Of a stretch of DNA of 5,079 nt, positions 2,599-5,079 are shown piece by piece. This DNA comes from a virus (lineage: Duplodnaviria > Heunggongvirae > Uroviricota > Caudoviricetes): the IMG/VR virus record IMGVR_UViG_2671180986_000013; one strand, given 5' to 3'. The notes below the pieces were generated by a model that was given only the letters and a program-made list of their open reading frames with translations, had not been told where the DNA came from and did no database searches. Each line of letters opens with the position of its first letter. Within the stretch, counting starts at the first letter, position 1. Both the position numbers and the translations under genes were made by a program.

Positions 2599-2719
2599 TG
2601 CTCTATTAAGAAAAGCCCTAAACATAATCTGTGAAGGGCTTTGGAGGTTTGCTTATAACGTTAACGAAGTTTCAGGAAAACTTTCTTTAAAAGCTCTGTT
2701 TAAAAACTCTTAAAGAAAG
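2599..2719. repeat. direct repeat A, copy 1 (121 bp, identical to 3201..3321)
   Basis: Base-by-base comparison of 2599..2719 with 3201..3321 gives 121/121 identity; the copies diverge immediately after (t at 2720, c at 3322). Confidence 0.95.
2605..2642 (-). terminator. candidate rho-independent terminator (minus-strand sense) inside A copy 1
   Basis: Stem aaagccct (2612..2619) pairs with agggcttt (2635..2642) around a 15-nt loop; on the minus strand the GC core GCCCU/AGGGC is followed by UUUUCUU. Short stem, so moderate support. Confidence 0.4.
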
Positions 2720-2749
2720 TTTTCCTGAAACTTCGTTAACGTTATAAGC
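2651..2749. repeat. perfect 40-bp inverted repeat (palindrome) with 19-nt spacer
   Basis: 2651..2690 gcttataacgttaacgaagtttcaggaaaactttctttaa is the exact reverse complement of 2710..2749; loop 2691..2709. The left arm and loop belong to repeat A; the right arm is unique to this copy and is followed directly by 11 N. Confidence 0.9.
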
Positions 2750-2760
2750 NNNNNNNNNNN
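2750..2760. other. run of 11 N abutting the palindrome
   Basis: Directly visible; a single ambiguous base also occurs at 3200 immediately before A copy 2. Confidence 0.99.
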
Positions 2761-2762
2761 GC

Positions 2763-2936
2763 TTAAAAAAAGAACAAATGGTAGTGTCCGCTATTGCCAG
2801 TACACCTCAATGGACCTTTATTTACTTCGTGTGATTCCCGCCAAGCTCTATCAAAAGATTCACGCAAAGTTAATTCGTGAATATCAAGTGCACTTGGTCT
2901 GTGTTCGATAAGCATTTCATGTTCATTTCTAATCAT
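2763..2936 (-). CDS. hypothetical small protein (57 aa)
   Basis: Minus-strand ORF MIRNEHEMLIEHRPSALDIHELTLRESFDRAWRESHEVNKGPLRCTGNSGHYHLFFF, hand-translated (below the ORF-track size cut-off). ATG at 2936..2934 is preceded by AAGGGGTGA with a 5-nt spacer; stop TAA at 2765..2763. A TATAAAT motif sits about 32 nt upstream on the minus strand (plus 2968..2974). No recognisable domain. Confidence 0.35.
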   Translation of the reverse strand: MIRNEHEMLIEHRPSALDIHELTLRESFDRAWRESHEVNKGPLRCTGNSGHYHLFFF

Positions 2937-3040
2937 TCGTTCACCCCTTAGTTTATTTGTTATTTCAATTTATAGAAGCACACTCAGCAATCAGAGGTGA
3001 AGAGTCTGACTGAACAAGAACCTGCCAAGTGTGCTTTTAA

Positions 3041-3075
3041 AAACTGAAAAAGCCCTAAACATTTCTGTGAAGGGC
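3041..3075 (-). terminator. candidate rho-independent terminator (minus-strand sense)
   Basis: Stem gccct (3052..3056) pairs with agggc (3071..3075) around a 14-nt loop aaacatttctgtga; the minus-strand RNA continues UUUUUCAGUUUUU (plus 3041..3051). The loop is nearly identical to the hairpin loop inside repeat A. Confidence 0.5.
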
Positions 3076-3077
3076 AA

Positions 3078-3199
3078 AGGATTCAATAATGAATGAACAA
3101 GAGTACTTTTTGAGATAGCCTCTCAGACTAACCTGAAAGGCCATGACGAAAAGCATTGCACCTTTCCAACTCAGAATATCCATCCATCGGATTATTGAA
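3078..3199. repeat. repeat B, copy 1 (about 122 bp)
   Basis: Aligns with 3351..3471 with one short indel (gagtac vs agac) and three substitutions (t/c at 3129 vs 3400; cat vs tag at 3141..3143 vs 3412..3414). Ends are a 9-bp inverted pair, ttcaataat (3082..3090) and attattgaa (3191..3199). Confidence 0.9.
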
Positions 3200-3200
3200 N

Positions 3201-3321
3201 TGCTCTATTAAGAAAAGCCCTAAACATAATCTGTGAAGGGCTTTGGAGGTTTGCTTATAACGTTAACGAAGTTTCAGGAAAACTTTCTTTAAAAGCTCTG
3301 TTTAAAAACTCTTAAAGAAAG
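3201..3321. repeat. direct repeat A, copy 2 (121 bp, identical to 2599..2719)
   Basis: 121/121 identity with copy 1; contains the same left palindrome arm and loop but only the first 10 nt of the right arm (3312..3321). Confidence 0.95.
3207..3244 (-). terminator. candidate rho-independent terminator (minus-strand sense) inside A copy 2
   Basis: Same hairpin as in A copy 1 (stem 3214..3221 / 3237..3244, 15-nt loop), followed on the minus strand by UUUUCUU. Confidence 0.4.
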
Positions 3322-3341
3322 CCCTAACTCATGATTAGGGC
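3312..3341 (-). terminator. candidate rho-independent terminator (minus-strand sense)
   Basis: Stem gccctaa (3321..3327) pairs with ttagggc (3335..3341) around a 7-nt loop ctcatga; the minus-strand RNA continues UUUCUUUAAG (plus 3312..3320). Confidence 0.5.
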
Positions 3342-3350
3342 AAAGCTGTA

Positions 3351-3471
3351 AAGGATTCAATAATGAATGAACAAAGACTTTTTGAGATAGCCTCTCAGAC
3401 CAACCTGAAAGGCTAGGACGAAAAGCATTGCACCTTTCCAACTCAGAATATCCATCCATCGGATTATTGAA
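3351..3471. repeat. repeat B, copy 2 (about 121 bp)
   Basis: See B copy 1; about 95% identical, with the same 9-bp terminal inverted pair (3355..3363 and 3462..3470). Confidence 0.9.
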
Positions 3472-3497
3472 AGAAAAAATAAGAGAGAATTGCTCTC
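3471..3497 (-). terminator. small hairpin plus U-tract in the first ~30 nt of the predicted transcript (possible attenuator)
   Basis: Minus-strand sequence GGGGAGAGCAAUUCUCUCUUAUUUUUUCUUUC: stem GAGAG/CUCUC (plus 3483..3497) with a 5-nt loop, followed by UUAUUUUUU. The stem is only 5 bp, so support is weak. Confidence 0.3.
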
Positions 3498-3510
3498 CCC
3501 CATATATACA

Positions 3511-3539
3511 ATTATGTCATGCTCAAGGTTGTTTGTCAA
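3511..3539 (-). promoter_or_regulatory. near-consensus sigma70-type promoter (TTGACA, 17-nt spacer, extended -10 TGaCATAAT)
   Basis: Minus strand reads TTGACA (plus 3534..3539), a 17-nt spacer AACAACCTTGAGCATGA, then CATAAT (plus 3511..3516) with TG two bases upstream of the -10; an AT-rich stretch lies upstream of the -35. Predicted start near plus 3503, transcribing toward lower coordinates into the repeats. Confidence 0.55.
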
Positions 3540-3563
3540 CAGCTTTTAACAGATTGGTAACAT

Positions 3564-3629
3564 TTATACTTTAATAGATGCACCTGCAATCATACCAATC
3601 AATACAAAACAGATAATCACCAATTCCAT
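3564..3629 (-). CDS. 21-aa hydrophobic peptide (predicted single transmembrane helix)
   Basis: Hand-translated minus-strand ORF MELVIICFVLIGMIAGASIKV with stop TAA at 3566..3564. Its ATG (3629..3627) shares one base with the TAA stop of the upstream gene (TAATG) and is preceded by AGGTGG with a 7-nt spacer. Too short for the ORF track; coding status is not proven. Confidence 0.4.
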   Translation of the reverse strand: MELVIICFVLIGMIAGASIKV

Positions 3630-3952
3630 TAATGCACCACCTTCGAATCCGTCACCAGAATATTATCGCTATACAAAATTGCTATAGCCGCCTTGAGATA
3701 TTTTTCAGGGCTAACGCTGTATTTGTTCGTTTCTTCGATAATAAGACGCTTCATGTTTGAGTCGGTAACAGGAAACATAAAACGCGGTTCACCAGTTTCA
3801 ATTTCCTGAATAAAGTCTTCAATTTCTTCTGAGTTTTCAGCCATTAGCTTTAGTAATTTATCAAGGTCAATTGATACACCGGAATCAGCGAAAGCCTGCA
3901 CCATCATAGCAGTGTCGCTATCAATGAAAATCTGTAATTCATATTCGTTCAT
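3629..3952 (-). CDS. hypothetical acidic protein (107 aa)
   Basis: ORF-track entry 3629..3985 trimmed to ATG at 3952..3950, which has AAGGAG 9 nt upstream; the track start is a TTG inside a GAGGAGG motif. Product MNEYELQIFIDSDTAMMVQAFADSGVSIDLDKLLKLMAENSEEIEDFIQEIETGEPRF... has roughly 21 acidic versus 10 basic residues. No recognisable domain. Confidence 0.65.
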   Translation of the reverse strand: MNEYELQIFIDSDTAMMVQAFADSGVSIDLDKLLKLMAENSEEIEDFIQEIETGEPRFMFPVTDSNMKRLIIEETNKYSVSPEKYLKAAIAILYSDNILVTDSKVVH

Positions 3953-4130
3953 TTTTAAAATCTCCTTTTTACCAGACCTCCTCAATCGCTCTGTAACGAG
4001 CTAAACAGTCTTTTTCAGGGGTAGCCTGTACAGTGGTATTACCCACCCTAAAATAAGATAGTTTTTTGCGTTAGAATGCGATTGAGAGCGTCTGATAAGC
4101 TGTTTTTCTAATTTCTCTTAAAGTCTCGGA

Positions 4131-4331
4131 CTACCAATAACCTAATTCCGCTTTATTTCGTTCAAACCATTCCGCTGTAACTGCTGTCTTTAGTGTTGCG
4201 TTTGGGCTGGTGGCATGAATGAAGATATCTTTTGGATTGCAAGCATCACCGAAACCACCTTCTTTGATGAGCAGGTCTGATACATGCTTAATCATTTTAT
4301 CTGTCAAATATTCGAATTTAATACATAACAT
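4131..4331 (-). CDS. hypothetical protein (66 aa)
   Basis: ORF-track entry 4131..4364 trimmed to ATG at 4331..4329 (MLCIKFEYLTDKMIKHVSDLLIKEGGFGDACNPKDIFIHATSPNATLKTAVTAEWFERNKAELGYW). GGAG lies 5 nt upstream and the ATG overlaps the HNH gene stop (TAATG). Stop TAG at 4133..4131. Confidence 0.55.
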   Translation of the reverse strand: MLCIKFEYLTDKMIKHVSDLLIKEGGFGDACNPKDIFIHATSPNATLKTAVTAEWFERNKAELGYW

Positions 4332-4603
4332 TAAATCTCCAGGAGTAAATTGTTTGGGTGGCAATTTCTTTTATTACCATCCCTGAAGATAATCTTTTTA
4401 GTTGCCTGAACTTCATGATGCAAAAACCAGATGACATACTTCAGATAATAATCACGAGTGCCATAACGAATCATTGGATTACCGTAAGCATCATCTCTTG
4501 TCTTAACCTCTCCACCATCAATCCATTCAAGCATTCCTGTCTCATAATTAATCATGAAGTAAGTTGCAAAGAACCGTTTAATATCATCTCGCCATTGCTT
4601 CAT
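4331..4603 (-). CDS. small HNH-family endonuclease (HNH_3-like), 90 aa
   Basis: ATG at 4603..4601 preceded by AGGAGG with a 7-nt spacer. The C-terminal half YLKYVIWFLHHEVQATKKIIFRDGNKRNCHPNNL resembles the HNH_3 signature (..vHrlva..f.....vnH.DGNK.NN...NL), but Arg replaces the usual first His before DGNK and the protein ends straight after NL. Confidence 0.55.
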   Translation of the reverse strand: MKQWRDDIKRFFATYFMINYETGMLEWIDGGEVKTRDDAYGNPMIRYGTRDYYLKYVIWFLHHEVQATKKIIFRDGNKRNCHPNNLLLEI

Positions 4604-4605
4604 AA

Positions 4606-4884
4606 TCAGACCTCCTGAGACAGTTTGTGAATTTTGATACTTAGTAACCTTGCTAAATCCAGTCCAAAAGCATTTAAGGATTTCAGACTATCAAGGTCAT
4701 CTTGCTTAATCCTGATATGGTGTCTTGCAGCCTCTAAGCGACTATTAAGCAAATCCTGTTCGTTAATATCACGGTTAATTGCAAGCTTCATCACTGCTGA
4801 GTGTGGCAGACCTGTAATGTTTTTGATTCGGTTCAGTTCATCAAAGGCTGTCTTTGTAACTCTGGTTAATGTGTGTTTATTCAT
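4606..4884 (-). CDS. putative ribbon-helix-helix (CopG/Arc-like) DNA-binding protein, 92 aa
   Basis: ATG at 4884..4882 preceded by GAGGA with a 7-nt spacer. The N-terminus HTLTRVTKTAFDELNRIKNITGLPHSAVMKLAINR fits a strand / helix / loop / helix RHH pattern. Stop TGA at 4608..4606, 2 nt before the HNH start and overlapping its RBS. Confidence 0.4.
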   Translation of the reverse strand: MNKHTLTRVTKTAFDELNRIKNITGLPHSAVMKLAINRDINEQDLLNSRLEAARHHIRIKQDDLDSLKSLNAFGLDLARLLSIKIHKLSQEV

Positions 4885-5079
4885 TTAAAAATCCTCTGTA
4901 ACTAAATAGGGGTCAAACTCGAAATCTGGTTGCTCGTTTTCCATTGGCTCAATATTCCCAACGGCAATATGATGTTCAACAATGCCAATTAATTTCGCGC
5001 ACATCACAGCAAGCAAAGCGCAATATTTATCGCTTGGTAATTCGTAACTGGATTTGCCCCTATATTTCCAGACATCTGT
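4885..5079 (-). CDS. C-terminal fragment of a hypothetical protein (N-terminus beyond window edge)
   Basis: Minus-strand frame open from the window edge to TAA at 4887..4885 (...CALLAVMCAKLIGIVEHHIAVGNIEPMENEQPDFEFDPYLVTEDF); the stop is immediately followed by the ATG of the next gene (TAAATG). Confidence 0.4.
   Translation of the reverse strand, partial: TDVWKYRGKSSYELPSDKYCALLAVMCAKLIGIVEHHIAVGNIEPMENEQPDFEFDPYLVTEDF

Follow-up and report, generated by a model that had tools for sequence, protein, structure and literature searches.

Long perfect inverted repeats are known from phage genomes, an example being the protelomerase targets of linear plasmid-prophages such as telRL of N15. Intrinsic, or rho-independent, terminators are recognized by a different structure, a short G+C-rich stem with a loop of 3 to 8 nt and a T-run. 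Inverted repeats can also arise during library preparation: in end repair, short reverse-complementary regions, among them hairpins, allow single strands to anneal, after which T4 DNA polymerase trims the 3' overhang and fills in, producing inverted-repeat chimeras (PMC8458033). At the assembly stage, SSPACE and GapFiller are described as greedy and prone to false joins, and one widely used pipeline has fed these two programs only with reads that were not proper pairs (PMC5320598). Such an input would be expected to enrich for chimeras.

The locus studied here lies near the middle of a stretch of 5,079 bp that was analysed as a whole (the window), and consists of a 40-bp perfect palindrome that runs up to a block of N. 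This palindrome is almost certainly an artefact and not a biological site, and the outer part of its right arm, positions 2720 to 2749, is very probably no part of the genome but an extension by fold-back, added where an internal contig of a short-read scaffold has its 3' end. The best explanation is a hairpin-primed chimeric library molecule or a wrong extension of the contig end.

The likeness to end-repair chimeric reads is close. In both, the symmetry is centred on a short natural inverted repeat (10 bp here), the new arm repeats the neighbouring upstream sequence as its exact reverse complement, the asymmetric loop is present in its single natural orientation, and the product is an inverted repeat of one locus. 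The described chimeras came from FFPE human DNA, where they caused false structural-variant calls (PMC8458033), whereas ours stands at a contig end of a bacterial draft assembly for whose library the same chemistry is presumed. With the false joins and duplications of scaffolded short-read assemblies (PMC5320598) the locus shares N gaps of arbitrary or estimated size (661, 11, and 1), contigs that break at copies of insertion sequences, an overlap of 121 nt that passes for a direct repeat, and an interposed paralogous contig. In contrast to telRL of N15, the palindrome has an asymmetric 19-nt spacer and is not kept in relatives; the 8-kb neighbourhoods showed no protelomerase gene. Nor does it resemble a rho-independent terminator, having an A/T-rich stem of 40 bp, a loop of 19 nt, no T-run, and an outer part that is not genuine.

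In the deposited sequence, the arms at 2651 to 2690 (GCTTATAACGTTAACGAAGTTTCAGGAAAACTTTCTTTAA) and 2710 to 2749 are exact reverse complements, and a repeat search could extend them to 43 nt at 98% identity. The 11 N at 2750 to 2760 follow directly on the last base of the right arm. When the non-N sequence was shuffled 100 times, the longest perfect inverted repeat with a loop of 3 to 60 nt was 8 to 13 bp; the observed 40 bp is far beyond chance. Folded as single-stranded DNA, the 99-mer that comprises both arms and the spacer has an energy of -42.3 kcal/mol (z = -15). An earlier note, made from the letters of the sequence alone, had reported a perfect 40-bp inverted repeat with a 19-nt spacer, and in this it was accurate. 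It had also placed the left arm within a repeat that it called "repeat A," which again agrees with our results: an exact direct repeat of 121 nt, in which 2599 to 2719 equal 3201 to 3321, takes in the left arm and the spacer together with the right arm as far as its tenth base. Its further statement that the full right arm exists only in the first copy needs to be narrowed, being true of 2720 to 2749, the only bases private to that copy, and untrue of 2710 to 2719, which recur in the second.

The analysis shows which bases are genuine, where the contigs end, and that the relatives lack the right arm, and the features of the window are as follows.

1253 to 1913: scaffold gap of 661 N, of estimated size; 539 bp in relatives L009 and L011 to L013.
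2651 to 2690: left arm of the palindrome; genuine prophage intergenic sequence, near-identical in all aligned relatives, with its second copy at 3253 to 3292.
2691 to 2709: spacer of 19 nt, AAGCTCTGTTTAAAAACTC; genuine, present in relatives and in copy 2.
2710 to 2719: natural short right arm, TTAAAGAAAG; genuine, kept in relatives and in copy 2.
2720 to 2749: fold-back extension, very probably artefactual; exact reverse complement of 2651 to 2680, displacing the natural CCCTAACTCATGATTAGGGC.
2750 to 2760: scaffold gap of 11 N and internal contig boundary; the N are already in the public record.
2761 to 2809, plus strand: right end of IS600 (IS3 family), with which the next contig opens; 100% match to IS600 ends.
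2810 to 3199, minus strand: contig c3, with the IS600-truncated 5' end of a variant 236-aa gene and a variant intergenic region.
3200: join of 1 N between contigs c3 and c4; the exact repeat begins at the next base, 3201.
3201 to 3321: copy 2 of the 121-nt repeat, the overlap of contigs c2 and c4, followed by the true downstream sequence.
3321 to 3341, minus strand: natural intrinsic-terminator hairpin, GCCCTAATCATGAGTTAGGGC then TTTCTTTAAG; called by a terminator scan and kept in all relatives.
5049 to 5079, plus strand: IS2 end, where the scaffold stops; homology to relatives ends at 5049.

The window is, base for base and with its N included, the reverse complement of the whole of CXDQ01000253.1 (5,079 bp; assembly GCA_001252575.1). 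It is thus one entire draft-assembly scaffold, whose N were put there by the depositors. A look-up of the 57-aa open reading frame at 2763 to 2936 on the minus strand, a fusion of the IS600 end with the variant 236-aa gene, returned CXDQ01000253.1 as its one public record. The earlier note had taken the N for masked bases. They are scaffold gaps, because the 661 N stand for 539 bp in four relatives (L009 and L011 to L013) that are 99.9 to 100% identical on both sides of the gap. Deliberate masking was considered and rejected, the N being in the public record and the length of the 661-N run differing from the true length. The same gap happens to preserve the reading frame, which yields a single 832-aa open reading frame in the list of open reading frames; in the relatives the 539 bp run from the last part of the 236-aa gene through a 69-aa gene into the beginning of the tape-measure gene. 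A sister record from the same accession series, the draft CXCX01000061.1 (L010), has N runs of 11, 87, and 1, gaps of the same style, and its 11-N gap lies in the same region and likewise adjoins an IS600 end. Eleven N are too few for the approximately 1.2 kb of IS600 that is missing.

Insertion sequences bound and break the scaffold. The stretch from 2761 to 2809 matches, at 100% over 49 to 51 nt, the ends of IS600 in 2,674 E. coli genomes, where the element is annotated "IS3-like element IS600 family transposase"; it is identical to the annotated right end, finishing in ...CA, and equals the end of the full IS600 copy in L010. A search of a phage collection gave as its sole matches the 51-nt piece that is this IS600 end, and no close phage relative of the window was present in that collection. 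At the other end of the scaffold, 5049 to 5079 matches thousands of sites annotated "IS3-like element IS2 family transposase." In relatives L009 and L011 the tape-measure gene is truncated by an IS630-family (DDE_3) element, and positions 1 to 12 of the window are a continuation of the end of that element. Because of this content of IS600, IS2, and IS630-family elements, and because the 99.9% identical relatives are absent from the set of complete E. coli genomes, we suspect a Shigella-like host.

The relatives agree on what the locus looks like in genuine DNA. Five records, the complete genome CP061367.1 (L009) and L011 to L014, are 99.8 to 100% identical to the window, and in all five the segments 1914 to 2719 and 3192 to 5049 map to overlapping, contiguous coordinates. 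These five carry one copy of "repeat A," no IS600, and nothing of the segment from 2761 to 3199. The outer right arm, 2720 to 2749, was missing from 12 of 12 relatives, namely six that are 99.8 to 100% identical (L009 to L014, with L010 now included) and six that are more distant. In the first five records, all that the right arm matched was the left arm on the reverse strand, and the mismatched loop accounts for the 86% identity. An alignment of nine distinct sequences, which took in more distant E. coli prophages (84 to 91% identity) and one metagenome contig, showed ...TTAAAGAAAG followed by CCCTAAC...TTAGGGC in every one. The natural continuation of ...TTAAAGAAAG is CCCTAACTCATGATTAGGGC, both in the relatives and in the same scaffold from 3322 onward. 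The comparison with related genomes that the earlier note had proposed thus found the right arm absent from all those examined, an outcome that the note itself had named, along with the lack of a coverage or termini signal, as counting against it.

Wider searches gave the same picture. The full palindrome occurred in none of 5,426 complete E. coli genomes; the best matches there covered 2681 to 2749 at about 86%, which is the span and the identity of the window's own reverse-strand match to itself. A 29-mer across the junction had no exact match in 185,579 species-representative genomes and none in IMG/VR. The single metagenome match to this 29-mer proved to be a false lead: it lies on the opposite strand and consists of the left arm and a variant loop whose first bases are GAG. 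Exact scans for genuine sequence were also negative: IMG/VR did not contain the left arm with its loop, nor did the species-representative genomes contain the natural junction; the relatives described here are not in these two collections in exact form.

The order of the contigs in the scaffold explains the remaining irregularities. Contig c3 (2761 to 3199) is composed of 49 nt of IS600, the 5' end of a variant 236-aa gene, and a variant intergenic region without the hairpin segment. Its allele is 100% identical to L010, in which that record's own version of the downstream genes comes next; a single unbroken match at 95.9% was obtained to E. coli strain 4012, and the variant gene occupies the equivalent position in E. 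coli PK8566 (L006). At this locus in the contiguous relatives, L009 and L011 to L014, the c3 segment is absent. By these alignments, c3 belongs to a second, related prophage and carries that prophage's version of the locus. Since the contig after the 11-N gap starts with an IS600 end and carries the other prophage's allele, the scaffold is mis-joined here. The scaffolder set c3 between c2 and c4, contigs that are truly contiguous with a 121-nt overlap. This contig overlap, left standing in the scaffold as a false direct repeat, is "repeat A." A real duplication was rejected for "repeat A," since the relatives have one copy and copy 2 starts right after the 1-N join.

Against this background, the palindrome has every defining feature that could be tested for a chimeric artefact produced by fold-back at the end of a contig. 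It is centred on a short inverted repeat that the genuine sequence already contains, the 10-bp stem with its 19-nt loop. The extra bases, 2720 to 2749, are identical at 30 of 30 positions to the reverse complement of 2651 to 2680 and begin right after the natural stem, the divergence falling at 2720, where deposited copy 1 has T and the natural sequence has C. The extra arm stops at a scaffold gap, with N from 2750, and at no boundary defined by sequence; its total length of 40 bp is fixed by where the contig stops and not by biology. Finally, a conflicting junction exists, the arm being absent from L009 to L014 and the natural junction, 3321/3322, being present in the same assembly.

The most likely course of events begins in library preparation. 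A single-stranded fragment would have folded back on the short inverted repeat, and the end-repair polymerase would then have trimmed the unpaired 3' tail and copied the upstream strand, giving a molecule in which the left flank and the loop are followed by the left flank again as its exact reverse complement. Reads of this kind, one or a few in number, would subsequently have been taken up at the contig end, plausibly by greedy extension or in a gap-filling step. The true path at this contig end would have been left unresolved because the genome has a second, related prophage and several copies of insertion sequences. The step that made the fold-back would presumably be either library chemistry or gap filling and contig extension. 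A self-complementarity of 10 to 13 bp is shorter than the seed or overlap lengths of the usual assemblers and extenders. The assembler alone is therefore an unlikely source, and at least one read probably carries the fold-back. From the accession series and the gap pattern, we would guess that the record was made with the pipeline described in PMC5320598.

In the record, a fold-back read would be indistinguishable from a real minority variant of the culture. One alternative is that the isolate, or a subpopulation of it, has a real inverted duplication. In such a case, a break near the short inverted repeat would have been followed by fold-back priming in vivo, perhaps linked to IS600, and the true palindrome would be of unknown full length. 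The inference that at least one read must carry the junction, the 10-bp stem being too short for an assembler to fold back on, would fit a real duplication, as would the IS600 end scaffolded next to the palindrome. However, the same assembly has the natural junction 3321/3322 with 121 identical nucleotides upstream of it, the scaffold's only other allele of the locus, c3, is without the hairpin segment, and relatives of 99.8 to 100% identity are without the right arm; moreover, the link to IS600 depends on an 11-N gap too small for the element. We consider a real duplication in the isolate or a subpopulation improbable, and its most specific form, a recent, hairpin-primed inverted duplication seeded by the 10-bp repeat after a break, possibly IS600-associated and captured by chance in a draft assembly, a shade more improbable still. 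A second, rearranged copy of the repeat stays formally conceivable in a genome with at least two related prophages. An error that was computational throughout, in which a read was appended in the wrong orientation at gap filling or extension, or a graph tip was mis-resolved, with no chimeric molecule at all, is very unlikely. It might draw on two lengths: the stretch that opens with the contig overlap and closes with the contig end, 2599 to 2749, measures exactly 151 nt, a common read length, and the overlap of 121 nt resembles a k-mer size. These are suggestive only; 151 nt is what one read, or a 121-mer with a graph tip of 30 nt, would give, and may be a coincidence. On the other side, the self-complementarity within genuine sequence amounts to just 10 bp, or to 13 bp with one mismatch.

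That the palindrome functions in the phage, as a replication origin, a packaging or recombination site, a telomere-resolution site, or a very strong bidirectional terminator, is extremely unlikely. Its very high predicted stability and its position in a hairpin-rich intergenic region speak for such a function, but the arm boundary is a contig end and no relative keeps the outer arm, those of 100% identity included. A conserved phage cis-site (origin, cos or pac, recombination, or telomere-resolution) does not agree with an outer arm found in 0 of 12 relatives and 0 of 5,426 E. coli genomes. The asymmetric spacer and A/T-rich stem do not have the form of an intrinsic terminator, and the terminator scan made no call on the palindrome. 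Matches to Rfam at a permissive threshold were to generic long-hairpin microRNA models, all below their gathering scores; these microRNA-precursor models match any long hairpin, and we rejected them as candidates. Among the roles that the earlier note had listed, only the assembly artefact, in the form of a chimeric read or inverted-duplication join, has found support. Its biological candidates (a cruciform or protein-binding site, origin, packaging site, recombination site, or bidirectional terminator) have not, because the outer arm is absent from relatives, the continuation at 3322 onward conflicts with it, and the arm ends at a gap.

A fold-back at a contig end, as we read the palindrome, has a practical meaning that lies mainly in quality control; no new biology comes from it. 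A public draft record contains three errors, which are a fabricated arm of 30 nt, a false direct repeat of 121 nt, and a contig of another prophage set between two contiguous ones. Fold-backs at contig ends will stand out as striking in scans for long palindromes, origins, packaging sites, or repeats. As a filter, we propose that a perfect inverted repeat be treated as an artefact until reads say otherwise if three conditions hold: an arm adjoins an N run or contig end, the axis lies on a short natural inverted repeat, and relatives are without the outer arm.

What the genuine sequence holds at the palindrome is only a weak hairpin. Its 10-bp A/T-rich stem (2681 to 2690 with 2710 to 2719) and 19-nt loop have a folding energy as DNA of -5.8 kcal/mol (z = 0.2), and a stem of this length falls within the range of 8 to 13 bp obtained from the shuffles. 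The rho-independent terminator that does occur here is the genuine neighbour called by the terminator scan at 3341 to 3321 on the minus strand, in copy 2. The natural short right arm supplies its T-tract, TTTCTTTAA being the complement of TTAAAGAAAG. In one relative, E. coli 2017-19-1CC (L004), the region at approximately 2335 to 2360 corresponds to 3321 to 3341 of the window and has the terminator GCCCTAA-loop-TTAGGGC with its loop inverted, GCCCTAATCATGAGTTAGGGC against GCCCTAACTCATGATTAGGGC, compared with all other relatives, a small natural flip of a hairpin.

The earlier note had described the palindrome as lying immediately upstream of a structural gene. A gene is indeed nearby, with its start codon at 2511 on the minus strand and a length of 236 aa in relatives, although it is 140 nt from the palindrome, and the label "structural" stays unverified, the gene having no PHROG match and being annotated "hypothetical protein." A PHROG scan of seven neighbouring proteins gave one weak match, of a 90-aa protein to an HNH endonuclease.

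Between a 107-aa gene and the 236-aa gene lies a gene-free region of approximately 520 nt that is hairpin-rich and kept across the prophage family. Within it, on the minus strand at 3479 to 3539, is a promoter-like site close to the consensus (TTGACA, 17 nt, and CATAAT with TG upstream), which directly precedes a terminator-like hairpin with a long T-run. The region could encode a small RNA. Once the artefact is set aside, the longest remaining inverted repeat is a genuine one of 22 nt at 2536 to 2557 and 2592 to 2613, with 91% identity and a perfect 15-bp core, which precedes the start codon of the 236-aa gene by a short distance and recurs in aligned relatives.
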